Under the pieces are notes generated by a model. That model did no database searches. It saw nothing but the letters and a program-made list of their open reading frames with translations, and had not been told where the DNA came from. Shown in pieces: positions 1,699 through 48,314 of a stretch of DNA of 64,000 nt (position 1 is its first letter; every line of letters starts with the position of its first letter). Origin of the DNA: an uncultured Flavobacteriales bacterium. Lineage in GTDB: Bacteria; Bacteroidota; Bacteroidia; AKYH767-A; 2013-40CM-41-45. The stretch is taken from the NCBI GenBank assembly GCA_964595205.1, contig CAZQOQ010000036.1:242553-306552 (forward strand), read 5' to 3'. The position numbers and the translations under genes were made by a program.

Positions 1699-1727
1699 TT
1701 TATTTTTCTGAGATGATTGTAATCAAA

Positions 1728-2687
1728 TTAAAAATACCTGATAGACTTAATCCGGGTTTTATAGATGCCTATGTCGTAACTGATTGTAAATTCATGCGAT
1801 CCGTAACTGTATTTTTGCAAATGTGATATTGTGTAATCGTATGAATACCCGAACCTGAATTCCCTGCTGATTTGAAAACCGATCAGGCACGACACCGCAT
1901 CACCCGTGCGGTAAGCAGTGCCCAGCCAGAGTAAGTCGTTCAGGACGAAATTTAAACTTGCATCAAGTTGTACCGGTGCATTCTGAACACATTTAATCAT
2001 TACCGACGGCTTGAATTTCACATTCTCGTCCAGATCCATCACATAACCTGTCGCAAAATAGTAGCTCCATACTTTCGGGTTGCCAATATTTTTTACAACG
2101 CTGTTTGGTTTTGATGGATCGATCTTGTTTTCCAGCAGTCTTGGAATCGAAAACCCTGCGTAAAAATTCTTCTTATAGTAGTAAGTGCCGAAACCTGCAT
2201 TAGGAAGAAAATATTTCCTGACGTCGCTGCTAAACTGCCGGTCACCCGGAGTCGTTGTATTTACATCCGTAAAATTCTCGACATCGTTTACAATTCCACC
2301 CTGCAAACCGAAGGCAAGTACGGAAGACGGCATCAGTATTCTGTATGCAAAATTCCCGCAGATCAGAAATTTGTTTGATACGCCAATCGATTCATTCATC
2401 ATCGAAAGACCAATTCCAAGTTTCCTGTTTTCTACCGGAAGATGTATGCTGAATGCCTGGGTTTTCGGACTGCCTTTTATTCCTGCCCACTGATTTCTGT
2501 AAACCATATTCATCGCAAGACCTTCATGCGATCCCACATAAGCAGGATTGATAAATGTCTCGTTGAACATATACTGGGTGAACATGGGCTCCTGCTGTGC
2601 TTTCACACACATAGAAGTAAGAATTAACAGCGCGATCGCACAGTGGCATTTCAACTTCCCGGTAATATGTGTTATAAATGAATTCAT
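1728..2687 (-). CDS. porP: Type IX secretion system membrane protein PorP/SprF family
   Basis: The 319-aa protein has a signal peptide and the hallmark PorP/SprF N-terminus QQEPMFTQYMFNETFINPAYVG. It lies immediately downstream of the T9SS type-B cargo gene. Confidence 0.9.
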   Translation of the reverse strand: MNSFITHITGKLKCHCAIALLILTSMCVKAQQEPMFTQYMFNETFINPAYVGSHEGLAMNMVYRNQWAGIKGSPKTQAFSIHLPVENRKLGIGLSMMNESIGVSNKFLICGNFAYRILMPSSVLAFGLQGGIVNDVENFTDVNTTTPGDRQFSSDVRKYFLPNAGFGTYYYKKNFYAGFSIPRLLENKIDPSKPNSVVKNIGNPKVWSYYFATGYVMDLDENVKFKPSVMIKCVQNAPVQLDASLNFVLNDLLWLGTAYRTGDAVSCLIGFQISREFRFGYSYDYTISHLQKYSYGSHEFTISYDIGIYKTRIKSIRYF

Positions 2688-2710
2688 TTTTAAATTTTAT
2701 ATACCTGGAT

Positions 2711-5700: not shown

Positions 5701-8700
5701 CTATCGGAACGGTGTCGATGGTGAGAGTGGTGGAGTCGGGATCGAAATCTCCCGCAGTGATTATGGTGCCGTTGAATGTGTTTTCCTCTGTGAGTGTCGT
5801 AGTGTCATTTTCGATCACAGGAGGATCGTTGACAGCAATGACTGTAATTATTAATGTATCGTTGAGACATGTTGCAGGCATTGGAGTGCCGCCGTCACAA
5901 ACGTTGAATATAATAGTGTCTGTCCCGTTAAAATTGAGATCCGGAGTATAGGTATAATTTCCAGCTGCATCGACAACAATTCCTCCATGTGCAGGACCAG
6001 CCACAGGTGTTGTATTTACTACCAGTCCCGTCGTGTCAATATCATAATCGCCGGCTGTAATGATCAGGCCGTTCACGGGCGTATCCTCCGGTGTTGTATT
6101 GGCGTCGTTTACAAGTATGACCTGGTCGTTTACCGGATTCACAATAATATAAACCGTATCGGCAGTACACAACGACGAGCTGTCGCAAACATTTACGATG
6201 AAGAAATCGGTCCCGTTGAAATTGCTGTCGGGTAAATATGTAAAGCTTCCATCCGCCATTACCGAAAGCGCCCCGTATGCAGCATTTGTTACAGGTACGG
6301 TATCCACAGTGAGCACGGTGCCGTTTGGATCGAAATCTCCGTTCGAAATTATTCCACCTGCCGGAGGCACATTAAGAAACAGGTCTTCATTTACGGAGAG
6401 TGTATCGGTGATCGTAACAGGTGCGCTGTCGGGTACAATGATGTTTAATGTAGCATAAGAACACATTACGGGGTTGCCGGTATCACACACTTCGTAGTAT
6501 ACATATTCGATTCCTGTAAAACCGTTATATGCAGTGTAGGTGTAACTTCCGTCTGGATTGAAGATGATATCTCCATTGATAGGTCCTGTTATTAATGTAA
6601 ATCCTGCCGGATCGAGATTGCCATTCGGGTCATTATCGTTCGTGCCGACATTGCCCGAATATGGGGTTACGCCATAAGTTATTATGGTATCTGCAACAGC
6701 ATTCGGAGGTACGTTTGAGGTTGTTACCGATATCGTAACTAAGGCCGTATCGCACATGGAAGGAGTAGCATCATCGCAAACCAGGTAAGTGAAAAATTCG
6801 TCCCCGATAAAGACGCCGTCGGGTGTATAGGTGAAAGTTCCGTCAGCATTTACAATTACGCTGCCCATTGCCGGCGGTGTGATGAGACTGTATGTCATCC
6901 CCTGGCCGTCAGGTTCTACATCATCATTTGCGGCTACGGAATTGCTGATTGCAAATGTATTTGTCGTGGAAAAAAAATCATCGTTTGCAGCCGGAGGCCG
7001 GTTGTTAATGGAGACATACACTTTTGCAATGGAACATGTACTTATAATGTTTATACAGCCGGCGCCGAAATGATGGATATCACAGACTTTATATTCAAAG
7101 CTGTCAAGGCCCATGACACCCGGATCTGGCGTATACTGAATTTGCCCGTTGTCGAGGTATTCTATGGTTCCCAATGCCGGTGCAAGTAAACCTGAAGCTG
7201 TTGAATCGACTTCGAGTGAATCTGCATTTGGGTCAGTATCGTTATTGAGAACAAAGATTGGTAATATTTCGTTTATGAAAGTTGAGTCAGTATCGGCAAC
7301 TGCATTCGGCGGATCGCTTGGAGGGTTGTTGCTGTTTACCGTTACACTCACATTCCCATTTGTGCATTGTTGTGAATTTCCATTATCACAGACCTGGTAA
7401 GAAAATGTTGCAATGCCGGTAAATACCGGTGAGTCGGATGGAGTATAGACAATCTGGTTGTTTGAGATAACCGCACTTCCATTGGAGGGCACTGAGACCG
7501 ATGTAACGGTAAGTGTTCCATTCTCCGGATCGGTATCATTGGAAACAACATCTATGATTACTGCATTGCAGGCGCTGGTTGTTATCGTATCGTCGTTTGC
7601 CGTGGGAGCCTGGTTAGTGACGGTTATATAAAGGATAGCTGTATCGCATGCTGCCGGTGAATCGTTATCACAGATCTCATAGGCGACGGAATCTATTCCC
7701 GTAAAATCTGCATTCGGTGTGTATTGAATGGAGTTGCCGGCCAATACCGCTGATCCGTTTGAAGCAGACAAAATGGACTCCATTAGGGAAGTGGTATATG
7801 TAAATGCATTGACGGAAAGTGTATCGTTACTCTGAACATTTACCAATATGGGTGTTGCACTCGGTGTGGTGCTGTTATCTGTCATTGCCACGGGAGGCCC
7901 TGGCGCTGTCGTTACAATGAACAAGGCCGTGTCGCAGAGCGATGGCGTTCCCGTGTCGCATAACTTATACATCACGGTATCGACACCCGTAAATCCGAAA
8001 TCCGGAGTATAGGTAATGTTGTTTCCGTTTACGTTCGCCGAACCATTCGATGCCGGTGGATTTATGATGCTTACTGAAAAAGAATTTCCATCCGGATCTG
8101 CATCATTGGAAGTCACGCCATAATCAACAGCCCGGTTTGCATACGTTGTAGTCGTATCGTTATTGGCAACAGGAGGCCGGTTTGGAATATTCGTGCACTT
8201 CCAGAAATCAAAACTTACTGCATCTGCATCCACACCGCCAGTCGTTGTTGTCTGCCTGATCCTGATGAAGCGAGTCTGTCCCGATACGATGAAATTATAA
8301 TTTGCAAATATTTTGTCAGACGCTGCCGGAAGATTAAAAACAGTTGTCGTCGTTGGACTCCCCCATGCGTTGGTAAGATTTCCTTCTACGGTGATTGTAT
8401 TCGCAGAAGCATTATCGGGAGCCATCCGTATCACTATTGTGTCTGATGATGGAACGGTATCGGTCAGATCGAGGACAACATTTGATCCAATCACATTTAC
8501 GATTATTGCCGAAAGGGCATTGCTGCCATTTGATGCATCCGGAATGCCAAGAGCATCATTCGGATTTGTTGCATTCAGGCTCGACATAACAGCCGTTGCA
8601 TGCCCGCTGGTAAATGTTCCCACCTGGTTAGAGGCACAGGGATTATCCAGAATTGTATATGTGACAAAAGCTGTATCGCACAGGCAATTTGTATTACACA

Positions 8701-14682: not shown

Positions 14683-15747
14683 TTATGAATTTGATATTGC
14701 ATATTTTTTACAGAACCACCTGATCATGGAGTCGAGTGAATTCAGTGAAACAGAATCTGTACTGGATTTTTGGCCAATCTCATTCATCTCGTCATGTATC
14801 AGGTTATACAGCACGGCATCCCTGTATGGCCTTTCAAGAAGTCTAACGGCCAGCTTGTATTTTTCTGCCTGAGGAATCAGCCTTACTGTTTTGCTTTGTT
14901 GAAATTCGCCCTGTTCCACCATTCTTTCATAGGTATCTTTAATATACAGATTAAGAAAACGGATGTATGCAGGACAGTTCATGGCGTCAGGATTTTGAAT
15001 GAATGTCTTCGTCTCAAAGCTAAAAAATGCCGAATCACCCCGGATGTTTTCTATCTTCATTCGTTTCTTCCAGAGATAATAGAGTTTGTCAGACCCTATT
15101 CCATAGTTGATCGTGTTTAAAACATATTTTTTAAAATCAGAATTCGTCGAATCATTTTCAAAATAATTGTAAAAAAAGTCGAGCTGTTTCTGTTTTCTGC
15201 TTTCTATGTATAACGAGAACTGATGGATATCCATAAAGTTTGAAGCGATATAATATTCATTTTTTACTTCAGGATGATAAAAAAACGAGTCCAGGAATTG
15301 TATAAGAAATGAATTGTTTCCGGAACCCGGTCCGGAAGAAGTAATCACCGGTTTGTTTTCATTTCCTTTGAAATTAATCTCGAGGCGATTACCCGGCTCC
15401 AGGAATAGATTGTTTGCGAGTATAACGTTTCCGTTTTGAATGTTAAAAACAAGCGGCCTTTGATTATGAAGGATAAAGGAATAATGTCCATCCTTGTCAG
15501 CGACTGAAGAATCCAACGCAGTCTTATTATCGATATATAGAGACATTGAGTCGGCATAAGTGCAGAAATAAATTTTCCCTCCGGAAGCATTTTCAATTCT
15601 GCCCTCAACAACAGAGGAGCCGGGACTTATCTTTTCCTTTACGTTACAGGAAAAAAGAAATGGAATTACTGCAACGGATAATATCAGAAATCTCTTAAGT
15701 AACTGCATGTTCGTTGACAATGAGGCTGCAATAATAACACTTATCAT
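14683..15747 (-). CDS. Hypothetical secreted/lipoprotein (DUF4369-like N-terminal beta-sandwich?)
   Basis: 354 aa with a signal peptide followed by FSCNVKE. No catalytic motif was recognised. Confidence 0.35.
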   Translation of the reverse strand: MISVIIAASLSTNMQLLKRFLILSVAVIPFLFSCNVKEKISPGSSVVEGRIENASGGKIYFCTYADSMSLYIDNKTALDSSVADKDGHYSFILHNQRPLVFNIQNGNVILANNLFLEPGNRLEINFKGNENKPVITSSGPGSGNNSFLIQFLDSFFYHPEVKNEYYIASNFMDIHQFSLYIESRKQKQLDFFYNYFENDSTNSDFKKYVLNTINYGIGSDKLYYLWKKRMKIENIRGDSAFFSFETKTFIQNPDAMNCPAYIRFLNLYIKDTYERMVEQGEFQQSKTVRLIPQAEKYKLAVRLLERPYRDAVLYNLIHDEMNEIGQKSSTDSVSLNSLDSMIRWFCKKYAISNS

Positions 15748-15910: not shown

Positions 15911-16345
15911 TCATTTTGCCTTAAGGGAACGGATGTATGTAATGACAGTCCATCTTTCGTTGTCGCTTAACTTTTCTTTGTAAGACGGCATCGGTTTTCT
16001 TCCTTCAGTGGTTTTCCAGTAAGCTTCACCATCTGTTACTTTTGCAAATTCATCACCCGTAAAATCTCCGCATGAGATATCGATCTTCTCAGCCTTTGTT
16101 CCATCGCCCTTGCCTTTTACTCCATGGCAGGATTTGCAGTGTTGAGAATAGAGTTCCTTGCCTTCTTTCAATGCTGCTTCATCTGCCTTGATCGGGTTTT
16201 TGGCTTTAATGGCAGACTCAGGGGCCGGCCATGGTTTTCCTTTTGGTTTATCCTGCGCCTGGATATTATTAAGTCCAATGAACAGAAAAGCACCGAGAGC
16301 AACAATTGCAAATAGATTATTTGCATTCATTAATTTTGATTCCAT
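15911..16345 (-). CDS. Monoheme c-type cytochrome (class I)
   Basis: Signal peptide and a single CKSCHG (CxxCH) motif, with a conserved Met-rich C-terminus (PMPSY). 144 aa. A NosC-like position as the last gene of the operon. Confidence 0.8.
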   Translation of the reverse strand: MESKLMNANNLFAIVALGAFLFIGLNNIQAQDKPKGKPWPAPESAIKAKNPIKADEAALKEGKELYSQHCKSCHGVKGKGDGTKAEKIDISCGDFTGDEFAKVTDGEAYWKTTEGRKPMPSYKEKLSDNERWTVITYIRSLKAK

Positions 16346-16351
16346 GATTTC

Positions 16352-16918
16352 TTACTTTTTAGAATTATTTATTTTAATTAAATGCTTGCTTATTTTTTTA
16401 ATTTTAAATATTTGTGTTATCACATAGATTAATGTTCCCCAAATTCCAAGGATAATCAGGTTAGAGACTACAATGAAATAAATCGGAGCATTTTCTCTCG
16501 ATGCATATAATGAGCGACCCATTTCTTCTGCCTTAACCTTTGGAATTCCCCAGTTGATGTTTTCTTTTGTTTCCAGGGTGCCGTAATTCTCATCGTCTTC
16601 AATTTTAGCGATTACAGTAAGGTTCCCCTTTTCATCGCCTGGAATATCTTCAGGGAAATTAATTTTGGCGATTCCATTTTCATCAGTAGTTGCATCGTCG
16701 CCAACGGGCAACTGGCTGAAAAGTCGCTGGACATAAATTTTAACGGCCACTTCGCTTACCGGCTTTTCTTCTGAGATAACCTGTACTTTGCAAACTTTCG
16801 TACTGTCCTCCATTTCGAAACTCAAAGTCATTTTTGCCTCCTTTTCCTGCGCAAACGAAAAAAGCGAAACAAAGATAAACCCCGTAATCAGCTGGAATAT
16901 ATAATGAACGTTTTTCAT
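16352..16918 (-). CDS. Hypothetical bitopic protein (signal peptide plus C-terminal TM anchor)
   Basis: 188 aa with an N-terminal signal and a C-terminal hydrophobic helix IYFIVVSNLIILGIWGTLIYVI. It is tightly packed between the NrfD-like gene and the cytochrome c gene. Confidence 0.4.
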   Translation of the reverse strand: MKNVHYIFQLITGFIFVSLFSFAQEKEAKMTLSFEMEDSTKVCKVQVISEEKPVSEVAVKIYVQRLFSQLPVGDDATTDENGIAKINFPEDIPGDEKGNLTVIAKIEDDENYGTLETKENINWGIPKVKAEEMGRSLYASRENAPIYFIVVSNLIILGIWGTLIYVITQIFKIKKISKHLIKINNSKK

Positions 16919-16926
16919 CTAATTAT

Positions 16927-18300
16927 CTATTTATAATTTATGATTTCATCTTTCCCTTCCAGTCTTCCTTCCGCGACTTCCCAGACTGAAATGATCGGGA
17001 AGAATTTTGAAAACAATGTCACTATCAATAATAATGCAGCAAATGTTGCCCCTACAATCGTCATCTCAACCAGGCTTGGCGTATAGTGCTTCCAGGATTC
17101 GGGAACATCCTGTATCGGAAGATACGGATGTGCAAGCCCTGGTATAACAATCAGGTACCGTTTAAACCATGCGGCAATTACAACAAATACTGCTATGATT
17201 GTAAGCGGTAACGGCTTACGAACCCTCTTAAAGAGCGGTAATGTTGCCGGTAAAATCATTCCGAAAAATACAACAGACCAGTATAATGGAGCATCTTCGC
17301 CAATGAAAAGGCTCAGTAAATGATTTGCATGCAGGCCCGACATTTTATAAGCCGGTACAAGATATTCGTTAACGTTAAAATAAATGTAAACGAATGACAT
17401 CAACGCAAGTGCCTTGCCGAGTTTGTCGAAGTGCATCTCCGTGAGATAATTCTGGAGGCTGTATGCTTTTCTGATTACAAAGACGGCTATAATCATTCCC
17501 GCTACACCAAGAAGGAAAGCTCCTGAAACGAAATAGGCTCCGAAGTTGGTGCTATCCCATTCCGAACGCAACGTCGTTGCAAACAGCCAGGCTGTAACCG
17601 TGTGTATCGAAATACCAAGTGGTATGACCATAATGGTTAATATCTTCATGCACTTCTTCAGAATTCTCCACTGCTCTGCTGTTCCCTCCCAGCCGAACGA
17701 CAGGAAGTCGTACATCTTCATTTGCCATTTTGGTTTGTTCTGAAGGTGATTCTTGCAGGTAGACATCGACGGAATTAAAGGAATGTATAATAGAACCAGG
17801 CTCGTCGCCAGATAAGTCATGATTACGATTATGTCCCAGACAATCGGCGATTGAATTCTTCCGTGTATTACAAGATAATGCAGCCTGTCCGGACGACCCA
17901 TGGCGGCAACAATACTTACTCCCGCAAGCATGATTGCCCCCAGTGCAATCACTTCTGCTATCCTCGACAATGGCCTGTACCATTCGAAGTTGGTCAGTTT
18001 AAGGACGGCAGACATTAATACACCTATTAAACTGAGCGCAACGAAGAATACGAAGTTTGAAATATAAACACCCCACATCGTATAATCCCTCAGCGAAACA
18101 GTGACATACTTACTCTTAGTTTCCTGGATATAATATGCATAAAGTCCGAGCAGGCAGACAAGAACTAAAAATGCAATCCATACCTTGCCCCACTTGCCCA
18201 GATGTTGTACAGGACGGAGTAAATCTCTCTTCATCACCATATACTCTTCCTGCGTAAATGTTTCGTAGGTAGTCGCTTCTTTTGGATTAAATGCGCTCAT
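16927..18300 (-). CDS. NrfD/PsrC-family polytopic membrane quinol-interacting subunit (NosH/ActC-like)
   Basis: A 457-aa integral membrane protein with 8-10 TM helices. It lies immediately downstream of a Tat FeS protein (14-nt gap), the classic NrfC-NrfD / PsrB-PsrC / NosG-NosH arrangement. Confidence 0.75.
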   Translation of the reverse strand: MSAFNPKEATTYETFTQEEYMVMKRDLLRPVQHLGKWGKVWIAFLVLVCLLGLYAYYIQETKSKYVTVSLRDYTMWGVYISNFVFFVALSLIGVLMSAVLKLTNFEWYRPLSRIAEVIALGAIMLAGVSIVAAMGRPDRLHYLVIHGRIQSPIVWDIIVIMTYLATSLVLLYIPLIPSMSTCKNHLQNKPKWQMKMYDFLSFGWEGTAEQWRILKKCMKILTIMVIPLGISIHTVTAWLFATTLRSEWDSTNFGAYFVSGAFLLGVAGMIIAVFVIRKAYSLQNYLTEMHFDKLGKALALMSFVYIYFNVNEYLVPAYKMSGLHANHLLSLFIGEDAPLYWSVVFFGMILPATLPLFKRVRKPLPLTIIAVFVVIAAWFKRYLIVIPGLAHPYLPIQDVPESWKHYTPSLVEMTIVGATFAALLLIVTLFSKFFPIISVWEVAEGRLEGKDEIINYK

Positions 18301-18314
18301 AATAATTGATGTTT

Positions 18315-19247
18315 TTATTCCTCCTTGTTGTGTTCTTCAGTGGCATCTTCAAACGGAAATTGTCTCTTCACCGGAGGCAGATAATAAACTCTGGGTTTTG
18401 TTCCAAGCTCTTCAAACTGGCGATAGCCTGCCCGGCTCCTGAGCAATTCTTTCAGGCGGAATGTTTCTTCGCCATTTGTAACTGTGTCCTCATATTCGTC
18501 ACCGAAAAAGATCGTCCCGTTTGGACATTCAGTCACGCATTTAGGTAATTCACCCTTTGCAGCATGACCGGGACAAAAATCACATTTCGAAACAGTGCCA
18601 ACCGTTGAAGACTTCGTCGTACAACAGTGATCATCTGTACAGCCGTTTTTCTCGCTGTAAGCGACTTGCTCAGGCCTGCCAAAATTGAATGTCCGTGCGG
18701 AATACGGACAAGCGGCCATACAAAATTTGCAACCGATACATCGATCGCTGTCTACAGCTACAATGCCGTCTGATCTTTTAAATGTTGCATCAACAGGACA
18801 TACTTTCGTACATGGAGGATTGTCGCAGTGATAACAGGGTTGAGGAAACCAATATGGAGAAGCAAGTTCTGAATCCTGCATCTTTTTTACCTTGATGTAT
18901 TCCACCGGTGGGAGCATGTTGTGCATATGCTGGCAGCCTTCCACACACTTTCTTTCATTGGCACATCGTGCAAGATCGATGACCATAACAAATTTTCTGC
19001 CTTCTATTCCCTGTCGGATCTGTTCCTTCGATAAATCGTATTCTGTTGCATGATGGGTAACATGAGAACTGTCTACTTCCAGAAGTTTGCCATCGGCGGT
19101 CAGCACCTTTACTTTCTTACCCGTCTCCTCTTTTTCGCCACCGATGAGTTTATTTTGAAGAGCTAAACCGGCTAAGGTTGCACCTCCGGCAAGTAATCCG
19201 AATTTGAGAAATTTTCTGCGATCGGAATTTTCATTTTCTTTTTCCAT
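18315..19247 (-). CDS. Tat-exported 4x[4Fe-4S] ferredoxin-type subunit (NrfC/PsrB/NosG-like)
   Basis: Twin-arginine signal SDRRKFLKFGLLAGGATLAGLA. There are four Cys clusters: CANERKCVEGC, CYHCDNPPCTKVCP, CIGCKFCMAACP and CDFCPGH...CVTECP. Confidence 0.85.
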   Translation of the reverse strand: MEKENENSDRRKFLKFGLLAGGATLAGLALQNKLIGGEKEETGKKVKVLTADGKLLEVDSSHVTHHATEYDLSKEQIRQGIEGRKFVMVIDLARCANERKCVEGCQHMHNMLPPVEYIKVKKMQDSELASPYWFPQPCYHCDNPPCTKVCPVDATFKRSDGIVAVDSDRCIGCKFCMAACPYSARTFNFGRPEQVAYSEKNGCTDDHCCTTKSSTVGTVSKCDFCPGHAAKGELPKCVTECPNGTIFFGDEYEDTVTNGEETFRLKELLRSRAGYRQFEELGTKPRVYYLPPVKRQFPFEDATEEHNKEE

Positions 19248-19312
19248 AAAATCTTTTTTCAGCTTTTCTCATATAAAGATATACTTATTCCAGAATGAAT
19301 TTCATTCAACAA

Positions 19313-20212
19313 TTATTTGAATCCCCATTGACGGGTAATATTAAATCCGATCAACATATCACCTTCAAAAAAATCATTCTTATTGAAGACCCTGAAGTCC
19401 TGGTTCATGATTTCCTGTGAAGAACAGACAAATACCTGGAACTGGTGGCTGCCTGTGGAAACCTCATAGCCGATTCCAAAATTTGGTTTAGGCCTGTAGA
19501 TTTCATCCATGTCGGAAACATTCAGCAGGTAATCGTATTCGATCAATACCGAGGACTGTGGGCTGAATTTATATCGTCCTGCGAATGAAATGCCGTAGAA
19601 GTCGTTTTTCCCATAAACGGAATCGATGATGTTGAAGTGTGAGTACGTGCCTGCCACCTGTGCAGAAATCTTACTGGTGAACTTTCTGCCTACTATGATT
19701 TCGTTGAAATAGGAAAACTTGTTTGCTTTTTTAAATTCATTTTCCTGGTTGATGAAATTTTCATCTTCCAAAGAACTCTTTGAAACATCTCCATAATATG
19801 TTACGGAAACCGGAACTCCTTTCCCCTTGGTCTGTTTAAGAATGATTGCCTTGCCCTGTAGGTCGTACTGCATTTTATTTTTTGTAACTCCTGCCCCAAG
19901 TGAAATTCGTTTGGTGATTCCATAACTCATTCCAAGCCTGATATTGGCCGGCGCATAGATTCCAAACAGGTCGTCTGAATTTTTTACCAACCCGAACCGG
20001 TGCTGGATCATAAATTCAAGAGATTTATGCCCGTTATTTTCTATCGTCTGATTGTTTATCAAAACAGGATTTTCAAAAGTTGCTTTTACATATTCTTTTG
20101 CTGCAACCGGAGCGCCTGCTTCTGTGGTTTCCTGTGAATACGATACAGCTGTGATCGCCAGTAAAATCAGAAGTGAAATTCCCTTTAACAAATAATTTTT
20201 ACGGTAATTCAT
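19313..20212 (-). CDS. Outer-membrane beta-barrel protein of unknown function
   Basis: 299 aa with a signal peptide, alternating amphipathic strands and a C-terminal aromatic residue (...QWGFK). It is embedded in the electron-transfer operon. Confidence 0.5.
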   Translation of the reverse strand: MNYRKNYLLKGISLLILLAITAVSYSQETTEAGAPVAAKEYVKATFENPVLINNQTIENNGHKSLEFMIQHRFGLVKNSDDLFGIYAPANIRLGMSYGITKRISLGAGVTKNKMQYDLQGKAIILKQTKGKGVPVSVTYYGDVSKSSLEDENFINQENEFKKANKFSYFNEIIVGRKFTSKISAQVAGTYSHFNIIDSVYGKNDFYGISFAGRYKFSPQSSVLIEYDYLLNVSDMDEIYRPKPNFGIGYEVSTGSHQFQVFVCSSQEIMNQDFRVFNKNDFFEGDMLIGFNITRQWGFK

Positions 20213-20224
20213 ATTTTTTATGTG

Positions 20225-20611
20225 TTAGTTGTTTTGTGCTCCTTGTTCAATCCATGCCAGGATGTATCCGATCTCTTCTGCAGTGAGCGGTGCTGAAGGC
20301 GGCATTGGATTAACGGGCGAAATAATTCTTTTATAAAGTAAACTTTCTTCAGCATTTGATGTGTCCACGTAACCAAGCCCGGTTAATTCATTGTAAGCGT
20401 TTGGAGCGGATAAGTCCGGCGACGGTCCGCCACTTACGTGACAGGTTGGAATTGCACAATCTGCAGTGAAGATTGGTATAATGTCCTCTGAAAAACTTAC
20501 AGGCTCAGTAATTTCAACCGGTGCTGTGGTATAATAATCTTTTTCACACCCGATTAAAAAAAGCAGGCTTAATGATACAATCGTTAGAAGGCCGTATTTT
20601 TTCATTTTCAT
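20225..20611 (-). CDS. Small lipoprotein with a CAIPTCH motif (possible atypical heme site)
   Basis: 128 aa with lipobox LIGC. The mature N-terminus CEKDYYTTAPVEITEP is paralogous to that of the upstream 478-aa cytochrome. The gene overlaps the upstream gene by 4 nt (ATGA). Confidence 0.5.
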   Translation of the reverse strand: MKMKKYGLLTIVSLSLLFLIGCEKDYYTTAPVEITEPVSFSEDIIPIFTADCAIPTCHVSGGPSPDLSAPNAYNELTGLGYVDTSNAEESLLYKRIISPVNPMPPSAPLTAEEIGYILAWIEQGAQNN

Positions 20612-21978
20612 TTGAATGTGAGAGTTTCTTTTGCAGAGCCAATATGATTTTTTCCGTCGTTATCCATCAGCGCAACACCAAATGTGTAGCTCTTGTTTGC
20701 AGCGACATCGAACTGAGCATCGTCAGCATTGTTTGTTTTTAATTTACGAACCAGCAGAACCTGGTAAAGCGTGTGCACGTTTGTGCCGGGGAGCATGGCA
20801 TCTTTTATCTGAAGTGGTGTAAGGTTGCTGGTTGCAGTTATGTCGGCATTGCTGCCGTCAGGAGTCTGAAGGTAATAACCCGGTACGCCCGACAATCCTC
20901 TAAGGAAAGCAACCACATCATCTCTCTCCTGGCTGTTTAAAGTGCCCCAATACGGTCCCATATCAGCTACGAAATCCATGCTCGACATTAATGCTGAGCG
21001 GGATTTTTTATTTTGTGAAATGTGATTGATCGCTCCTTCGGTTCCGCCCTGACCGCGGTTGCCATGACAACCGGCGCAATCACCCGGAGGCGATGTCCTG
21101 TTATAAATGGAATCTCCTCTTTGTGCGTCACCAAGGAATGGCGATTTATTTAAAATGTAAAAAGCAGGATCGAGAATCGATGACTGTCCGTTAGGTAATG
21201 TAACAGATTGAGACGAGCCATCCCATTCATATGCCGGACCGGAACGATCAGTACTGCCTGCAGCATTTCGTTCAAACATTTTTTGTCCGCCATCGTCGAC
21301 CATGCTGTCCGTTTTGGCAATCATGTCTTCTGCATAACCCATAGGAGCCGATTTAGCTATATTCCAGTTCCAGAGATCGATACTTCCGGCAGTCGGATAC
21401 ATGTAGTTTTCTCCTGCAGCAGAGTGGCAGGAAGCTGCACATCCAACATTTGAAAATGTACCTGAGGGACTTGAAGCAGAATTTATCTCAAATGCAAATG
21501 CTAAACGGTCGGTGTTGCGTTGGGATGTCCAGCCACTTACCGCATCTGTCTTTAACGGGTCGACTGGTCCGCCAAACATCCAGCTGGAATTTGAAAGATC
21601 AACGTCTGAGTCGATCCACTCCGCCAGGATATAAATGTTGTCATTGTCATAGGCGGCCTTTAAGATCAACCCGGGATCATCACCGCCATTAAATGATGCA
21701 AGCCCGGTATATGTGCCTGTCATGTTCAGCAAACCATCACCATAAAGATTGTTTGTACTCAGATTTCCGGAACTCACTTTCAGATAATCAGCAGTTTTCC
21801 AGTAAGCCGAAGTGAGTGACACCGGAGGGCTGTTTACAAATTTTGCTTCCAGGGTTGATGTTGGTTCTGAAGTGTCAGGTGGCGGAGGAGTGTAGTAATA
21901 ATCCTTCTCACAGGAAACCATCATTACAATTAGCAGGATGAAGATGCTGACTTTAACAGGATGCTGAACGTATTTCAT
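20608..21978 (-). CDS. c-type cytochrome lipoprotein (about 455 aa mature)
   Basis: The likely start is the ATG at 21976-21978 (MKYVQHPVKVSIFILLIVMMVSC, lipobox). The ORF could extend to 22044. There is a canonical DCAGCH heme motif plus a CAASCH (Cx3CH) motif. The N-terminus is CEKDYYYTPPPPDTSEP. Confidence 0.7.
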   Translation of the reverse strand: MKYVQHPVKVSIFILLIVMMVSCEKDYYYTPPPPDTSEPTSTLEAKFVNSPPVSLTSAYWKTADYLKVSSGNLSTNNLYGDGLLNMTGTYTGLASFNGGDDPGLILKAAYDNDNIYILAEWIDSDVDLSNSSWMFGGPVDPLKTDAVSGWTSQRNTDRLAFAFEINSASSPSGTFSNVGCAASCHSAAGENYMYPTAGSIDLWNWNIAKSAPMGYAEDMIAKTDSMVDDGGQKMFERNAAGSTDRSGPAYEWDGSSQSVTLPNGQSSILDPAFYILNKSPFLGDAQRGDSIYNRTSPPGDCAGCHGNRGQGGTEGAINHISQNKKSRSALMSSMDFVADMGPYWGTLNSQERDDVVAFLRGLSGVPGYYLQTPDGSNADITATSNLTPLQIKDAMLPGTNVHTLYQVLLVRKLKTNNADDAQFDVAANKSYTFGVALMDNDGKNHIGSAKETLTFK

Positions 21979-22112
21979 AATTTTTATTTTAAAAGAAACT
22001 GATGTACCGTCTTCCTGTTTAACTTTCCTCTTGAATCGATACATCAGTTTTTCTTTTACTTAGATAATGAGATTAAAAATTAGATGTGATATTCAGAAAC
22101 ATTAGAATTGAA

Positions 22113-22979
22113 TCAGTGATTTTTATAGAACACAGCATTGATTGTCATTTCCATTTCATCGGAAGTGGAAATTGACCAGACACCATAGGTTTTATTGTTC
22201 GCTGCTGTTACGTTGGTAATAGCTTCAGAAGCCTTAGGCACCGGCCAATATGGAACGGTTGACTGGTTATCCATGTAATCAGACCTGTTGAATTTAAAAG
22301 TAGCTGTTAATCCTGCCCTGAGTTTATCATACGTTCCGTCATTGTTGGTGTCGAAGTCCCTCATCCCGTTGAAAGACAAATGAATATCTACGTTGTTAAC
22401 GATAGGCTCACCATTTGTATGACCGGGAGCATTCAGCCACCTGTTAAATGTTAACGTACCATGCATTGTGTACCCTTCGTGTGAATCGACTGTAATTGAA
22501 TTACAGTGGAATTTAGCTGTATCGCTCAATGGATCCACCTGTGTTTTTAAAGTGTCTAGGTAAACAATTCCTAAATAATTCAAACCACATTTTCCCAAAC
22601 CGTCTCTTCCAGGTTCTCCGGTATTATAGGTGGAAAGCTGCACCCAAAAATCAATTACAGCAGCGGATATGTTTGTTTCATCAAACTGGAATTCCGGATT
22701 GAACAGAAAATTATTAAATCTTCCAGTCAACATAGTAGAAGAAAAATCATAATACTTGGATTGCCAGTTCACATTCGAGTGTGATTTTTCAAATGTCCAG
22801 GTTGTGTCGATTGCTGCAGTTCCCGGTACAAATACTCCTGTATCATTCGGGTCAACATAAACGGTGTCATGAACCGTATTAGTAACTGTTTCCGTATCTT
22901 TTTTACATTGAGTTAAGAATAAACTCAATCCTGCGATGGTTAATATTGCCAGTGCGAGGAAATTTTTTTTGTTTTTCAT
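22113..22979 (-). CDS. Hypothetical lipoprotein (first gene of the operon)
   Basis: 288 aa with signal and lipobox LFLTQC. No recognisable motif. Confidence 0.4.
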   Translation of the reverse strand: MKNKKNFLALAILTIAGLSLFLTQCKKDTETVTNTVHDTVYVDPNDTGVFVPGTAAIDTTWTFEKSHSNVNWQSKYYDFSSTMLTGRFNNFLFNPEFQFDETNISAAVIDFWVQLSTYNTGEPGRDGLGKCGLNYLGIVYLDTLKTQVDPLSDTAKFHCNSITVDSHEGYTMHGTLTFNRWLNAPGHTNGEPIVNNVDIHLSFNGMRDFDTNNDGTYDKLRAGLTATFKFNRSDYMDNQSTVPYWPVPKASEAITNVTAANNKTYGVWSISTSDEMEMTINAVFYKNH

Positions 22980-23291
22980 AATGTTGTTTTTGTATTGACC
23001 TGTTGAAATGATTTATTGCGCTTTGTTTTATTTTTTCTGAGTCCAAATCTCCAACCTTACGAATTTTTATAAAATGATTGGCCTCATATTTAATGCAAGT
23101 TTGATATGATTTGTATCATGTATTCCGGGATACTTCATTATTTCTGGCTCATTCTGATTATTGATATGGATTGCTGCCGAATTGATATCGGAATACCAGG
23201 CAAAATGATTTAGATCCCCTTGTGTTTTCATTATTTTCATCTAAATTCGTCGAATTGCCATTCAATTCATCAAATTCAATTATAGTTTTTC
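22980..23291. promoter_or_regulatory. Divergent promoter region between the NrfCD-like operon (-) and the octaheme cytochrome gene (+)
   Basis: A 312-bp AT-rich non-coding gap flanked by divergent start codons. Confidence 0.4.
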
Positions 23292-25538
23292 ATGATCCGA
23301 AGGAACTGGGCCGTTTTTGGTATTGTTTTTTGTACTTTCATTTTGATTCATGCTTTAGTTTCCAGTTGCTCCAATCCTCAGTCACCCGCCGATTCAAAGG
23401 CCGAAGCGTTGCAGGAAGCCAAATATATTGGAGGCGAACAATGCAGAACGTGCCATCCTCACCAATTTGATGACTGGAAAAAATCAGATCATTTCAAAGC
23501 CATGTCCCCGGCAAATGATTCAACCATATTGGGAAATTTTAATAATGCAACATATATAGCAGATGGCGTCACTAGTAAATTTTTCAAAAGAGACGGTAAA
23601 TATTTTATTAATACACAAGGTGAGGATGGCGGCAATCATGATTTTGAAATTAAATATACATTCGGATACTATCCATTGCAGCAATATCTTGTTGCATTTC
23701 CCGGAGGACGAATGCAGTCGACACGCCTAAGCTGGGATGTAAAAAATAAAAAATGGTTTCACCAGTATGCCGGGCAAAAGATTCATCATCGCGACTGGCT
23801 TCACTGGACAGGGAACAGTCAGAACTGGAATACTATGTGTGCCTCCTGTCATTCTACTGATCTCAGGAAAAATTACAACTATTCATCGGACGAGTATCAT
23901 ACTGTGTGGAAAGAAATAAACGTAAGCTGTGAAACATGTCACGGCCCGGGTAGCAGACACATCTCTTTCATTCAATCAAGCGGATACAAGAGCGGAGAAA
24001 AGATTACCAACTCTGGATTTATTTATTCGCGCGATACAATTTCAAAGTTACAAATCAACTCCTGTGCACCCTGTCATGCCAGGAAGAGCGACATTTCTGG
24101 CGATTGGGTTAATTCCCCGGAAATCATGGACAACCTGATTCCGGAGATTATCAGTAATGAATATTATTTCCGCGACGGACAGATAAACCAGGAAGATTAT
24201 GAGTATGGCTCATTTCTTCAGAGTAAAATGTTTAAACACAATGTGCGATGCAGCAATTGTCATAACCCGCACTCCGATAAGCTCAGGATAGAAGGAAATA
24301 ATTTATGCCTCAGTTGTCATAAATCAAAATATGACTCGCCCGATCATCATTTTCATGAAATGTTTACAGAAGGATCTCAATGTATCAATTGTCATATGCC
24401 AATGAAAACTTACATGGGGATCGACAACCGCAGAGATCATTCTTTCCGTATTCCACGGCCTGACCAGTCGGTTTCTTACGGCACCCCGAATGCCTGTACG
24501 GGCTGTCATAAAAATAAATCCGATGAATGGGCTTCTTCAGCAATTATCAAATGGTACGGAAACAAAAGGAAATATCATTTTTCAGATGACCTGGCTCCGG
24601 GGAGTCTGTTGAATAATGAAAGCGAAGAACATTTGCTGCGATTATTAAGCGATACCGCACAACCTGCAATTGCCCGGGCAACTGCTGCTTATTATCTCGG
24701 TAATTTAGTCAGCGAAGGAAGTGCAAGAGGACTTCTTTCTGTTTTACAGGATAATGAAGCGCTCGTTCGTTATCATGCAATTCGCTCACTGGAGAATTTT
24801 GACAGGAATGTTTGGATGGACCACGTTTACGGAAACCTCTCTGATAATGTTCGGGCTGTGCGTATAGCTGCCGCAGATCTCTATCATAAGCTGCCATTGG
24901 AAAAGATTCCTTCTTCTTTTTTATCAGCATATCATGCTGCAGATGCCGAGAATAAAAATTTCCTTCACTATCAAACTGATTTTTCAGTAGGGAATGTCAT
25001 GCTCGGCGATTATAATTTGCAGGATGGGGATAATGTGAGTGCAATTGCTAATTATTTAAGGGGGTTAACAAAAGACAGCCTGATGAATTATGCGAGGCTG
25101 AATTTGTCGGTGGCCTATAGTAGTATCGGAAAAAATGAAGAAGCATTAAAGACTTTAAAAGAGGCAGCAGCAATTGATCCTGAAAATGACAGAGTGTATT
25201 ATAACCTGGGACTCCTGTACTATGAATTGAATGATACCGCATCCGCCTTGATCAATTTCAGAAAGGCCGTTCAATTAAATTCCCTAATTCCGGGACTGTA
25301 TTATAATTTTGGTTTAGCACTAATGAATCAGAAAAAACTAAAAGAGGCGGAAAAAATATTTTTAAGGGGAATCAGCATATTTCCTGATGCATTAAATTTA
25401 AATTATACTTTGGCTTTTCTATATTTGAATCAAAATGATTCTCAAAAAGCAAAGCCTTATATTGAAACTTTGTATCGGTTAGATCCTCAAAATTCCGAAT
25501 ATCAGTCAATGTACAGAAAATTTGGTTTATTAAATTGA
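23292..25538 (+). CDS. Octaheme c-type cytochrome with C-terminal TPR/HEAT-like repeat domain
   Basis: ATG at 23292 with signal/lipobox (LVSSC). There are 8 CxxCH motifs: CRTCH, CASCH, CETCH, CAPCH, CSNCH, CLSCH, CINCH and CTGCH. The C-terminal ~300 aa have TPR-like repeats (YYNLGLLYYELND, YYNFGLALMNQ). Confidence 0.85.
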   Translation: MIRRNWAVFGIVFCTFILIHALVSSCSNPQSPADSKAEALQEAKYIGGEQCRTCHPHQFDDWKKSDHFKAMSPANDSTILGNFNNATYIADGVTSKFFKRDGKYFINTQGEDGGNHDFEIKYTFGYYPLQQYLVAFPGGRMQSTRLSWDVKNKKWFHQYAGQKIHHRDWLHWTGNSQNWNTMCASCHSTDLRKNYNYSSDEYHTVWKEINVSCETCHGPGSRHISFIQSSGYKSGEKITNSGFIYSRDTISKLQINSCAPCHARKSDISGDWVNSPEIMDNLIPEIISNEYYFRDGQINQEDYEYGSFLQSKMFKHNVRCSNCHNPHSDKLRIEGNNLCLSCHKSKYDSPDHHFHEMFTEGSQCINCHMPMKTYMGIDNRRDHSFRIPRPDQSVSYGTPNACTGCHKNKSDEWASSAIIKWYGNKRKYHFSDDLAPGSLLNNESEEHLLRLLSDTAQPAIARATAAYYLGNLVSEGSARGLLSVLQDNEALVRYHAIRSLENFDRNVWMDHVYGNLSDNVRAVRIAAADLYHKLPLEKIPSSFLSAYHAADAENKNFLHYQTDFSVGNVMLGDYNLQDGDNVSAIANYLRGLTKDSLMNYARLNLSVAYSSIGKNEEALKTLKEAAAIDPENDRVYYNLGLLYYELNDTASALINFRKAVQLNSLIPGLYYNFGLALMNQKKLKEAEKIFLRGISIFPDALNLNYTLAFLYLNQNDSQKAKPYIETLYRLDPQNSEYQSMYRKFGLLN

Positions 25539-25550
25539 AAATTAAGACAT

Positions 25551-27023
25551 ATGAAAAAAAGTTTACTCATAAGAGCAGCTCTTATTTTCTTTATCAGTTC
25601 TCTTTTTGTAACTGAAATAAGAGCGCAGTTCAATTCTCAGGCTAATCGCAATTTCAGCAGGGAATCGCTTGCGTTTAAACCCATCAGGATCGAAAAGACC
25701 CTCTTCAGTGAAGATGCTGTCGATGACACTCTGTATATAAAGAAAAGATTCTGGCGGGCTTCCGGTGAATTAATGTTAGTACAAGTGATTCCTTGGGCAT
25801 ATAACTATTTTGTAAGAGACGCAGAATTTGCTCACATCACCTGGGAAAGCATCTGGTATAACATGCATTTTAAAAACTGGGAATGGGATGATAATAGTTT
25901 TAATACAAATCAGTTTGCTCACCCATATCAGGGAAACATGTATTTCAGTTCTTTCAGAACCAATGGATATAGTTTCTGGGAATCGGCACCTGCTGCTTTT
26001 ATAGGCAGTTATATGTGGGAAGTTGCCGGTGAAACTCATCCCGCTGCTCCCAATGATTTACTCAATACAGGATTGGGTGGAATTTCTCTTGGTGAAATGA
26101 CCTATCGTTTTTCGAACTTAATTGTCGATAACAAACAAACAGGATTTAAACGGCAGGTTAATGAAGTGCTTGCATTCCTCGTCAATCCCATGAACGGGCT
26201 GAACAGGATCATCGACGGAAACTGGGGCAGGGTAAAGGCTAACCCGCCAGGCAGGGTACCCGGTTTTCTCAGCGGTAACTTCGATGTCGGCTACAGGCGG
26301 TACAGTCAGAATGTCGATGACGTATTCACAAAAGGCAATAACGAATTTTATGTCAGGGCAAGTATTCAATATGGAAATCCATTTACAGATTTCGAAAAAC
26401 CATTCAGCAGCTTTGCTCTCATCGGCGAATTAGGAGCTTCCGATTCCGCCACTCTCAATAACCTGCAGGTTGTAGGCAGTCTCTATGGAAATACCCTGAA
26501 GGAAAATGAAAGTGTAAATCATATATTGTTGGTTACAATGAATTATGATTATATCAAGAATACTTCTATACAGTTTGGCGGACAAAGTTTTAGTTTAAAG
26601 GTGCTTTCTGACCGGATCTATAAAAATAACAATCACTTTTACACTGAAGCAGGCATCATAGGAATTGCCATTGCTGCCATTCCCGACGATTATCTGTCAT
26701 ATGGCGAAGGAAGAAACTATGATTTTGGTCCCGGTGGAGGATTAATTTTAGGTTCCCGGCTGAGCTTGAATGATAAATTCTGGTGGAATATTAATTATAA
26801 AGGTCTATGGCTGCATACCGTGAATGGAAATGCTTCTGATTTCTTTATCAGTAATGGTTCTACAGATGTCAGGTACTTTATATCTTCCCAATTTTCACTC
26901 CAGGCCCAAATCGGTTATATTGTTCAAAACAGCAACTACAGGGATTTTGAAGACACCATAAAAAAATATCCTTACGGAAGAATCGGAATTGGATTTACTA
27001 TCGGTTCCAAAGAACATATTTAG
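25551..27023 (+). CDS. Secreted outer-membrane-type protein of unknown function (12 nt downstream of the octaheme cytochrome)
   Basis: 490 aa with a signal peptide (IRAQ), an aromatic-rich sequence with a conserved NQFAHPYQG motif, and a C-terminal Phe-rich strand. Confidence 0.45.
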   Translation: MKKSLLIRAALIFFISSLFVTEIRAQFNSQANRNFSRESLAFKPIRIEKTLFSEDAVDDTLYIKKRFWRASGELMLVQVIPWAYNYFVRDAEFAHITWESIWYNMHFKNWEWDDNSFNTNQFAHPYQGNMYFSSFRTNGYSFWESAPAAFIGSYMWEVAGETHPAAPNDLLNTGLGGISLGEMTYRFSNLIVDNKQTGFKRQVNEVLAFLVNPMNGLNRIIDGNWGRVKANPPGRVPGFLSGNFDVGYRRYSQNVDDVFTKGNNEFYVRASIQYGNPFTDFEKPFSSFALIGELGASDSATLNNLQVVGSLYGNTLKENESVNHILLVTMNYDYIKNTSIQFGGQSFSLKVLSDRIYKNNNHFYTEAGIIGIAIAAIPDDYLSYGEGRNYDFGPGGGLILGSRLSLNDKFWWNINYKGLWLHTVNGNASDFFISNGSTDVRYFISSQFSLQAQIGYIVQNSNYRDFEDTIKKYPYGRIGIGFTIGSKEHI

Positions 27024-40761: not shown

Positions 40762-40783
40762 GAGTTAATATTTTTCATTAATA

Positions 40784-40817
40784 AAAAAAGCCTGGATTTA
40801 ATTCGGGCTTTTTTTGT
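40784..40817. terminator. Bidirectional Rho-independent terminator between ansB (+) and the malic enzyme gene (-)
   Basis: The sequence aaaaaaagcctggatttaattcgggcttttttt gives a roughly 8-bp stem flanked by an A-run and a T-run. Confidence 0.6.
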
Positions 40818-40851
40818 AAATTATAATATAGTTTTGTAACAGCGATGAAGA

Positions 40852-42468: not shown

Positions 42469-42484
42469 TTTTATTTTTGTTTGA

Positions 42485-43867: not shown

Positions 43868-43923
43868 AGTAAAAAGATTTTAGTAAAACCATTCAACAAA
43901 AGTTTCTTCCATTGAGGTATAAA

Positions 43924-45207: not shown

Positions 45208-45274
45208 ATATAAACACAACTCTGGTTTAACATTCGGAACTAACAAAACATCGAGGTTGTTTTAATAGTAAATG

Positions 45275-46729: not shown

Positions 46730-46765
46730 TGTATTATTTTTTATTGGTTAGATTATTTCGATTTA

Positions 46766-48118: not shown

Positions 48119-48314
48119 TTTGTAGTATTTAAAAAAATATTACATTATTAATTAATTTTTTACCTCATTGTAAAGTATCTTAATTTGATTTTGGCAAGGT
48201 ATGATAATAATCATATATTTTTCTAACTTATGTTTGGTTCAATGAATTTTAGTTTTGTTAATTTAGCAAATTATAAGAACCTAATAATTTTCAATTCATA
48301 AATCCCAAAAAACC

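Follow-up and report, generated by a model that had tools for sequence, protein, structure and literature searches.

What does an NrfD-type membrane subunit with its iron-sulfur (FeS) partner deliver electrons to when no catalytic enzyme is encoded beside it? The question is raised by a stretch of 64,000 nucleotides (the window) from an uncultured Flavobacteriales bacterium (contig CAZQOQ010000036.1, positions 242,553 to 306,552), in which eight open reading frames (ORFs) lie on the minus strand between coordinates 15911 and 22979. In order of transcription these encode a YceI-like lipoprotein, a lipoprotein with EB_dh and cytochrome c domains (the EB_dh protein), a small lipoprotein (lip128), an outer-membrane protein of family DUF5777, an FeS protein exported by twin-arginine translocation (Tat), an NrfD-family membrane subunit, a 188-residue protein (bit188), and a monoheme cytochrome c. 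The eight genes are a genuine operon, conserved in many Bacteroidota, and are composed of a four-gene core (the FeS protein through the cytochrome c) joined to exchangeable cassettes rather than one indivisible eight-gene unit. The operon probably provides an undescribed route for electrons, leading from the quinone pool of the membrane towards the cell surface.

Organization of the operon

The YceI-like lipoprotein gene (22979–22113; 288 amino acids [aa]) is the first of the operon and is followed by the genes for the EB_dh protein (22044 or 21978 to 20608; 478 or 456 aa), lip128 (20611–20225; 128 aa), the DUF5777 protein (20212–19313; 299 aa), the FeS protein (19247–18315; 310 aa), the NrfD subunit (18300–16927; 457 aa), bit188 (16918–16352; 188 aa), and the cytochrome c (16345–15911; 144 aa). 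Number and order of the genes are as proposed in the initial annotation, which was made from the sequence alone, and the ORF list and the Pfam and NCBIfam matches agree on most of the identities. Gaps of 16 nt or less with 4-nt overlaps were also described there; most junctions are indeed tight (68 or 134, -4, 12, 65, 14, 8, and 6 nt in order of transcription), but two exceed this length (65 nt, and 68 or 134 nt depending on the EB_dh start), and there is a single 4-nt overlap, shared by the EB_dh and lip128 genes. A terminator-like hairpin (15868–15832, minus strand), with a 15-bp stem followed by a T-run, closes the operon in this genome, and a possible accessory lipoprotein gene (14683–15747, minus strand; 354 aa, no family) lies beyond it. 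A scan for sigma-70 promoters was uninformative, with 24 sites found and 25.4 expected.

Conservation of the core and exchange of the cassettes

Relatives of the NrfD subunit number in the thousands, the best 120 matches being 67–100% identical to it. When this protein was searched for in single genomes, one for each GTDB species, at least 581 matches were confirmed, and 80 loci were retained, nearly all of them from Bacteroidota, with NrfD identities to the window of 52–87%. ORFs in the 80 loci were grouped by BLASTP mapping and clustering. Forty-five loci have at least 5 kb on either side of the core and are referred to as fully flanked. Cultured carriers among the 80 are Flavobacterium franklandianum, F. 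fluvii DSM 19978, F. soyangense, and F. alvei.

Every one of the 45 fully flanked loci, all from other species, contains the FeS, NrfD, bit188, and cytochrome c genes in the same order, and the full order from YceI to cytochrome c is found again in many of them. Because both the core order and the full order recur across species, the eight-gene arrangement is not a chance one. Among all 80 loci bit188 is present in 78, invariably between NrfD and the cytochrome c, and the core cytochrome c is present in 72. The lip128–DUF5777 pair lies within 10 kb of the core in 35 of the 45 fully flanked loci, consistent with the earlier suggestion that the module is tied to lipoprotein cytochromes and an outer-membrane barrel, and the EB_dh and YceI genes do so in 21 and 18, respectively.

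Positions of the cassette genes are similarly regular. lip128 adjoins DUF5777 in 54 of the 80 loci, and the pair is mostly located directly upstream of the FeS gene, although in some Chitinophagales-like loci it is found downstream, past the cytochrome c gene. Immediately before lip128 comes EB_dh in 33 cases and the gene for a six-heme lipoprotein in six Flavobacterium loci. YceI homologues are present in 22 loci, every one upstream of the EB_dh gene, a small transthyretin-like lipoprotein (Ig135) recurs in 17, and a homologue of the lipoprotein at 14683–15747, of about 350 aa, follows the cytochrome c directly in 19 other loci.

Exchange of cassettes is evident at several of these loci. One (L085) has the core and three EB_dh cassettes in a single island, and two others (L068 and L070) have a different cassette directly after the core, in place of the lip128–DUF5777 cassette. 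This second cassette, found in 7–9 loci, encodes three proteins, none of which reaches a Pfam threshold: a cytochrome c of 157 aa, a putative outer-membrane barrel of 389 aa with a terminal Phe, and a CXXCH protein of 89 aa, its motif being CSRCH. The cassette is near or directly after the core in L003/L016, L006, L024, L029–L031, L046, L068, L070, and L085. Of the eight-gene order, the part formed by the four-gene core is conserved, and the full order recurs in many loci, but the cassettes are exchangeable.

In several genomes there are two or three cores that are paralogs of one another (L023 and L049, L026, L051, L058, L076). A second core type, with an NrfD about 53% identical and an Ig-like subunit of about 300 aa, is present in L023, L026, L051, L058, L076, and L085, and frequently forms a tandem with the first or shares its contig; a single metagenome-assembled genome (MAG) may have up to three cores. 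Four loci (L055, L057, L061, L065) have the cassette nearest to that of the window (65–75%), yet their NrfD is only about 59% identical, whereas L005–L016 have NrfD subunits 84–87% identical to the window and cassette proteins at 35–55%. From these mosaic identities core and cassette seem to have recombined independently.

Absence of a catalytic partner

Families were assigned with Pfam and NCBIfam, and structural relatives were sought among all chains of the PDB. No molybdenum (Mo) or tungsten (W) enzyme, NosZ, or NrfA is encoded by the 33 ORFs of the window scanned with Pfam, which took in all those of at least 350 aa except 55814–56893, 58203–59894, and 61722–62879. Nor does a molybdopterin subunit, NosZ, a pentaheme protein like ActA of alternative complex III (ACIII), or a second NrfD recur in the 80 loci, in which the core never adjoins a molybdoenzyme, NosZ, ActA, or ActB1 and has no recurrent large neighbor. 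Beside the core, ActA, ActB1, ActD, and ActF are missing from each of the 45 fully flanked loci. Apart from members of the named cytochrome families, a single ORF of the related loci has at least four CXXCH motifs, and by position none resembles ActA. The FeS–NrfD pair was initially called an orphan, and it is one both among the scanned ORFs of the window and in its relatives.

Two explanations of this orphan state had been anticipated, that the FeS protein is half of a split ActB, and that such clusters always adjoin nosZ or another known reductase. The FeS protein has a Tat signal of its own and the gene set is self-contained in 45 of 45 loci, so the core is not a split ACIII, and the missing ActA, ActB1, ActD, and ActF rule out a partial one as well; no nosZ or known reductase is recurrently adjacent. 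The suggested likeness to NosGH does not hold. The membrane subunit is of the NrfD/ActC type, matching only ActC and, weakly, ActF in the PDB, and no NosZ-like protein is found in the scanned ORFs or the loci; NosH is a NapH-like membrane protein and not an NrfD.

Molybdenum cofactor genes (MoeA, a ModE-like helix-turn-helix protein, TauE, MobA, MoeB-rhodanese, MoaE, and MoaC-MoaB) do lie at about 1–5800 in the Flavobacterium loci L034, L040, L048, and L056, on the same strand and directly upstream of an array of multiheme lipoprotein, lip128, DUF5777, and core, with a CcsBA-type cytochrome c synthase a few kb downstream. This association is limited to a few related species with no molybdoenzyme nearby, and we have set it aside as coincidental or unexplained.

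The four-gene core

The NrfD subunit is ActC-like. Its PDB matches are ActC (E 1e-44 with the single sequence, 1e-54 with a profile) and ActF (1e-4), with no others and none to PsrC. It scores 89.2 bits with Pfam NrfD and shares 39% identity with ActC from a complete ACIII-like operon (in locus L087); the NCBIfam match to DsrP, at 103 bits, is below the cutoff of 350. About 9–10 transmembrane segments are indicated by a hydropathy scan, and FeS motifs are absent from the protein. It presumably provides the menaquinol site.

The FeS protein starts with a twin-arginine signal (RRKFLK). Its best PDB match is PsrB (5.8e-26), the C-terminal FeS domain of ActB aligns over residues 82–298 (1e-15), and its top NCBIfam match is DsrO, at 163 bits against a cutoff of 200; Pfam assigns it to Fer4_11. 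It had been described as a Tat protein with four [4Fe-4S] clusters, and while Tat export and four clusters stand, it keeps 15 cysteines (in a 3+4+4+4 pattern) and not 16, which suggests three [4Fe-4S] clusters and one cluster with three cysteine ligands. ActB of ACIII has this same complement.

bit188 belongs to no family, with only sub-threshold Pfam matches (bMG3, Big_1), and a profile finds nothing significant in the PDB and no ActD chain; identity with ActD is ruled out, there being no similarity. A cleavable signal peptide (..FAQ|E) is followed by an Ig-like beta-sandwich in the periplasm, then by one C-terminal transmembrane helix and a basic tail. With the signal peptide removed and a single C-terminal helix, the mature protein is single-pass, which refines the bitopic topology first proposed.

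The cytochrome c is a class-I monoheme protein (C70xxC73H74, Met119; Pfam Cytochrom_C, 51 bits) with a type-I signal peptide and not a lipobox. Its PDB matches include 6h5l_B (1e-18), ActE of Flavobacterium johnsoniae (6btm_E, 6.4e-11), and ActE of Roseiflexus and R. marinus (6lod_E, 6f0k_E); two non-ACIII cytochromes outscore ActE. It also matches PRK14486 of NCBIfam, a cytochrome domain fused to cbb3 subunit II (E 6e-16). A relation of the core to ACIII follows from the resemblance of NrfD to ActC and ActF, of the cytochrome c to ActE, and of the FeS protein to the C-terminal domain of ActB, and by these similarities the core is best described as a minimal ACIII-related NrfCD–cytochrome c module with a new fourth subunit.

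A glutamine marks the predicted type-I cleavage site in the DUF5777 protein (..YSQ|E), bit188, and the cytochrome c (..QAQ|D), and is invariant in the DUF5777 (Gln27) and bit188 families. This is consistent with the Bacteroidetes "Q-rule", with an N-terminal pyroglutamate.

The outer-membrane cassette

Pfam recognizes EB_dh and Cytochrom_C in the second product of the operon, and its start at 21978 gives a lipobox form (MKYVQ...VSC), with 22044 as a longer alternative. The initial annotation of a 455-aa lipoprotein cytochrome c is sound as to the lipoprotein and the cytochrome c domain but overlooked a second invariant motif, C-x3-C-H, located with an invariant histidine in an EB_dh/DOMON fold into which the class-I cytochrome c domain (CXXCH) is inserted. 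The CX3CH motif is predicted to bind heme covalently. A similar revision applies to lip128, previously taken simply as a 128-aa lipoprotein, which it is; in addition to the lipobox cysteine it has a conserved C52-x4-C57-H58 and Met103 in an MPP context, and with weak Pfam matches to Cytochrome_CBB3 (E 0.0086) and PSCyt1 (E 0.16) it is a putative small monoheme c-type cytochrome.

DUF5777 (PF19089) is assigned at 243.5 bits against a gathering score of 23.1, and a literature search found no paper on the family. In the model the protein is a beta-barrel of 12 strands; an N-terminal segment (residues 40–63) is conserved, and the closest structural neighbors include the specific channels KdgM, NanC, and COG4313. 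Two histidines, H71 and H256, are invariant in 56 sequences; in the predicted strand topology, strand 1 bears one of them close to its outer end and strand 11 bears the other where it starts on the periplasmic side. We considered a bis-His heme inside the barrel and set it aside, as the two residues appear to be at opposite ends.

The YceI-like lipoprotein (37.3 bits, cutoff 23.7) has an invariant lipobox cysteine (Cys25) and the mature N-terminus C-K-K-D-T-E. A C-x-K-(D/E) mature N-terminus is common to all four lipoprotein families of the cassette (lip128, EB_dh, YceI, Ig135) and is not found in the downstream lipoprotein of about 350 aa. C-X-K-(D/E)2 is an experimentally defined signal for surface export in Bacteroidetes (PMC5080379), and Ig135 matches it exactly. 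The six-heme lipoprotein that substitutes in Flavobacterium has a polar residue and then two acidic residues at its N-terminus; it matches Pfam Mtrc-MtrF_II-IV (51.7 bits, E 9.6e-14) and is also above threshold for the NrfA-family Cytochrom_C552 (27.4 versus 24.1).

More distant relatives place the EB_dh domain in a wider setting. A profile search across 1.8 billion representatives gave 2101 relatives, EB_dh(CX3CH) proteins among them; the large proteins examined are either EB_dh arrays or plain multi-cytochrome c proteins. Distant EB_dh relatives are multidomain, with two to five tandem EB_dh repeats, each with CX3CH in the sequences read, and bear sorting domains of the type IX secretion system (T9SS), dockerin, PKD, or FlgD_ig domains. 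A T9SS-tagged example is encoded directly upstream of the complete ACIII-like operon noted above, and others adjoin multiheme cytochromes of 753 aa and about 1050 aa. Both the T9SS-, dockerin-, and PKD-tagged tandem copies and these multiheme and ACIII-like neighbors point to an extracellular site for this domain type. In two arrays (P0406 and P0488) the C-terminal domain aligns with mature lip128 along its whole length (E 2e-6 and 9e-7), a fusion that links the products of the neighboring EB_dh and lip128 genes. Large secreted or surface proteins with tandem EB_dh domains are P0406, P0408, P0411, P0413, P0423, P0442, and P0488 (loci L087–L093), and as a family they resemble extracellular heme arrays of an undescribed class. 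Two other relatives (P0473, P0445) are histidine kinases with an EB_dh CX3CH extracytoplasmic sensor domain, which suggests a heme-based redox sensor.

A proposed route for electrons and its alternatives

From the domain identities, folds, heme motifs, gene linkage, and domain fusions we infer a two-part electron chain across the envelope, including formation of a complex, outward flow, surface exposure of the terminal proteins, crossing of the outer membrane, and an external acceptor. We favor this chain tentatively, at somewhat short of an even chance. Menaquinol would be oxidized at the ActC-like NrfD subunit, and electrons would then pass through the Tat-exported FeS protein to the ActE-like monoheme cytochrome c, with the single-pass Ig-like bit188 as a structural partner. 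The cytochrome c would reduce outer-membrane heme lipoproteins grouped around the DUF5777 barrel, namely lip128 with its CX4CH motif and a terminal lipoprotein. At the outward end would be the two-heme EB_dh/DOMON-c protein in the window and the MtrC-like six-heme lipoprotein in Flavobacterium, and the YceI-like lipoprotein may be an accessory that binds a lipid or a quinone. Exposure of the terminal lipoproteins at the surface is probable, and the oxidant would be extracellular or close to the outer membrane, such as a metal, a humic quinone, or an oxidative enzyme. Crp-family regulators recur in 13 of the 80 loci, and 10 of their 18 copies have an FNR-like N-terminal cysteine cluster, so that expression is probably tied to low oxygen.

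Several observations weigh against this chain. In 10 of the 45 fully flanked loci the core has no cassette within 10 kb. The cysteine spacing of lip128-like domains varies (CX4CH, CXXCH, CXCH), making heme binding putative, and lip128, EB_dh, and YceI have a single acidic residue after the lysine and are partial matches to the export signal. As modeled, a 12-stranded barrel is too narrow to hold a cytochrome as MtrB holds MtrA. A path for cofactors through the outer membrane is not apparent, and by strand topology the two invariant histidines seem to be at either end of the barrel. The direction of flow is not readable from sequence, and related NrfD complexes run either way. Finally, no paper on the system was found in the literature searched. 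The more specific proposal, that this is a new trans-envelope conduit of the Bacteroidota made of a minimal ACIII-like dehydrogenase, the DUF5777/CX4CH pair, and a surface DOMON-c exit, is put forward as a possibility that is less likely than not.

Electrons could instead run inwards, with lip128 and DUF5777 acting as a split Cyc2 together with the surface heme lipoproteins and oxidizing Fe(II) or reduced humics; the periplasmic cytochrome c would then supply a terminal oxidase, or electrons would be driven uphill through the ActC-like module to menaquinone. We regard this as unlikely. In Cyc2 the cytochrome domain precedes the barrel, an order mirrored by the two genes, and ACIII-type modules are invoked in models of Fe(II) oxidizers. 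Many carrier MAGs are, judging by their record names, from boreal lakes, Lac Pavin, or groundwater, and MAGs of freshwater Bacteroidetes have been reported to contain putative genes for extracellular electron transfer (EET) and Cyc2 (PMC6344600). Some NrfD complexes, Qrc among them, act as quinone reductases (PMC13059093). However, the carriers look heterotrophic, with no obvious need for reverse electron flow, the barrel is 12-stranded and not fused to a cytochrome, and no similarity to Cyc2 was found, though no test aimed at it was made. FNR-like regulators imply induction at low oxygen, which suits an alternative acceptor more than oxygen-dependent Fe(II) oxidation.

It is less probable still that the core is a second compact quinol:cytochrome c oxidoreductase feeding a cbb3 or caa3 oxidase and that the cassette is a separate system, e.g. 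for sensing or uptake. The loci lacking a cassette, the contig of P0091 (where the core also stands without one), the frequent presence of two or three paralogous cores per genome, and a cytochrome c resembling both ActE and the domain fused to cbb3 subunit II are all in keeping with an independent core, and the EB_dh histidine kinases show that related domains can act in sensors. Set against these are the 78% co-localization of core and cassette across Bacteroidota orders and the layout of the eight genes, which in the window look like a single operon, overlapping by 4 nt at one junction, separated by 6–65 nt at the others from EB_dh onwards, and with a terminator only after the cytochrome c. 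Moreover, the genes that replace the cassette again encode heme proteins and a putative barrel, and oxidase genes are not seen among the recurrent neighbors in the 80 loci. We rate just as improbable a periplasmic reductase, respiratory or detoxifying, in which a soluble oxidant enters through the DUF5777 channel, a heme lipoprotein is catalytic, and the quinol module supplies electrons. The structural proximity of DUF5777 to specific channels, the Cytochrom_C552 match of the Flavobacterium lipoprotein, and the adjacent FNR-like regulators would suit such an enzyme, as would di-heme proteins in four loci that resemble peroxidases when judged by eye. But the terminal heme protein swaps between unrelated folds (EB_dh-c and MtrC-like) while the rest is kept, as would be expected of an electron-transfer protein more than of a specific enzyme; other members of the EB_dh(CX3CH) family are in proteins that are secreted or at the surface, and a signature of an open-coordination catalytic heme was not identified.

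Comparison with known systems

Like ACIII (ActABCDEF; 6BTM, 6F0K, 6LOD), the core has an ActC-type membrane subunit; the ActB FeS domain aligns with its FeS subunit, its cytochrome c matches ActE, and the order FeS–NrfD–small transmembrane protein–cytochrome c parallels ActB-C-D-E. In contrast to ACIII, it lacks the pentaheme ActA, the molybdopterin-like ActB1, and the second NrfD (ActF), its small subunit is Ig-like, single-pass, and unrelated to ActD, its FeS protein is nearer in sequence to DsrO and PsrB than to ActB, and it is linked to an outer-membrane cassette. DsrJOP (of DsrMKJOP), QrcABCD, and Hmc/Nhc similarly use a periplasmic FeS protein and a 10-helix NrfD to connect the quinone pool with c-type cytochromes, and DsrO and DsrP are the best NCBIfam matches of the core, although both are below their cutoffs. 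Unlike those modules, the partner here is one monoheme cytochrome c and not a multiheme one, there is an extra Ig-like subunit, the distribution is nearly all within Bacteroidota, and outer-membrane proteins are linked. The Psr/Nrf/Ttr-type complex iron-sulfur molybdoenzymes likewise have a Tat-exported four-cluster FeS subunit, but no Mo/W-bis(pyranopterin guanine dinucleotide) or NrfA subunit is adjacent here.

FeS, NrfD, and cytochrome clusters lacking a catalytic Mo subunit occur in Melioribacter roseus and MBNT15 (PMC9386147; PMC8076601), and such sets have been proposed from genomes to be quinol:acceptor oxidoreductases (PMC9386147). The initial description of an undescribed composition holds for this gene set, of which no published account was found, but the general idea had been published. 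No description of this core, or of a CX3CH DOMON cytochrome, was found in the literature searched.

As in MtrCAB, the Geobacter porin-cytochrome complex (PCC), and Cyc2, lipoprotein cytochromes and an outer-membrane barrel are encoded beside a quinol dehydrogenase; the cytochrome-then-barrel order is shared with Cyc2, and the Flavobacterium variant of the cassette has an MtrC/MtrF-type domain, which the window version does not. The DUF5777 barrel cannot enclose a cytochrome, with 12 modeled strands compared to 26 in MtrB and 16 predicted for Cyc2, no gene for an MtrA-like periplasmic decaheme protein is present in the related loci, and the heme proteins of the window are mono- or di-heme with CX3CH and CX4CH motifs. 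The EB_dh fold itself is that of the EbdC/NxrC gamma subunits of type II dimethyl sulfoxide reductases. These bind a non-covalent heme b, whereas covalent heme attachment through CX3CH is predicted here, in a lipoprotein into which a class-I cytochrome c domain is inserted and which has no alpha or beta genes (Mo, NarH-like) beside it. The repertoire of YceI (X158-like) and X183-like cytochrome c domains is reminiscent of Cbp2D/Cbp2E of Cellvibrio and Teredinibacter, in which X132 and CBM2 domains are present as well (PMC12542752; PMC10916295; PMC8981238), but this is a resemblance only, the X183 similarity being at the level of generic class-I cytochromes; unlike those secreted multidomain proteins, the ones described here are separate lipoproteins with no CBM2.

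NrfD/FeS–cytochrome modules and outer-membrane conduits are both known, and their combination was not found described. The combination consists of an ActC-like core with a new Ig-like subunit, a DUF5777 barrel, a CX4CH lipoprotein, and a DOMON-fold protein with a covalent-heme motif. The module is common, with cultured Flavobacterium among its carriers, and because these exist the question is directly testable. If electrons are exported, abundant aquatic and soil heterotrophs would join the reducers of extracellular substrates, and freshwater and soil Bacteroidota would transfer electrons to metals, humics, or extracellular oxidative enzymes. The conduit would then be distinct in architecture from Mtr/PCC and Cyc2. 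It would also assign a concrete role to the EB_dh(CX3CH) domain, whose tandem repeats are found in secreted proteins from several lineages, and provide a model for the supply of electrons to Cbp2D/E-like extracellular redox proteins.

Other features of the window

A divergent gene, 313 nt upstream of the operon (23292–25538, plus strand) and not mentioned in the initial annotation, encodes a 748-aa protein with eight CXXCH motifs and HEAT and TPR repeats, which has cytochrome c554 and paired-CXXCH matches and a sub-threshold NrfA-family match. It is followed by a DUF3943 gene (25551–27023, plus strand). Neither has a homologue in the 80 loci, and they are ruled out as parts of the system. In the divergent intergenic region (22980–23291) the sequence ATATCAA is present three times in a span of about 70 nt, and these copies may be regulator sites.

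Elsewhere in the window, the segment 39706–48118 encodes an asparaginase, malic enzyme, a citrate/sulfate-type transporter, a porin O/P-like protein, a lyase of the aspartase/fumarase family, and the anaerobic C4-dicarboxylate carrier DcuA/B, and is followed by a glutaminase gene (48315–49394). This cluster (39706–49394) hints that C4 acids derived from amino acids are respired or fermented at low oxygen. An Nramp protein is also among the ORFs scanned with Pfam. The segment 1728–11098 contains the gene for an adhesin of 2795 aa (SprB/cadherin-like, with the CHU_C signal for T9SS) beside a PorP/SprF gene, which indicates that the window is from a gliding or T9SS-bearing member of the Bacteroidota.

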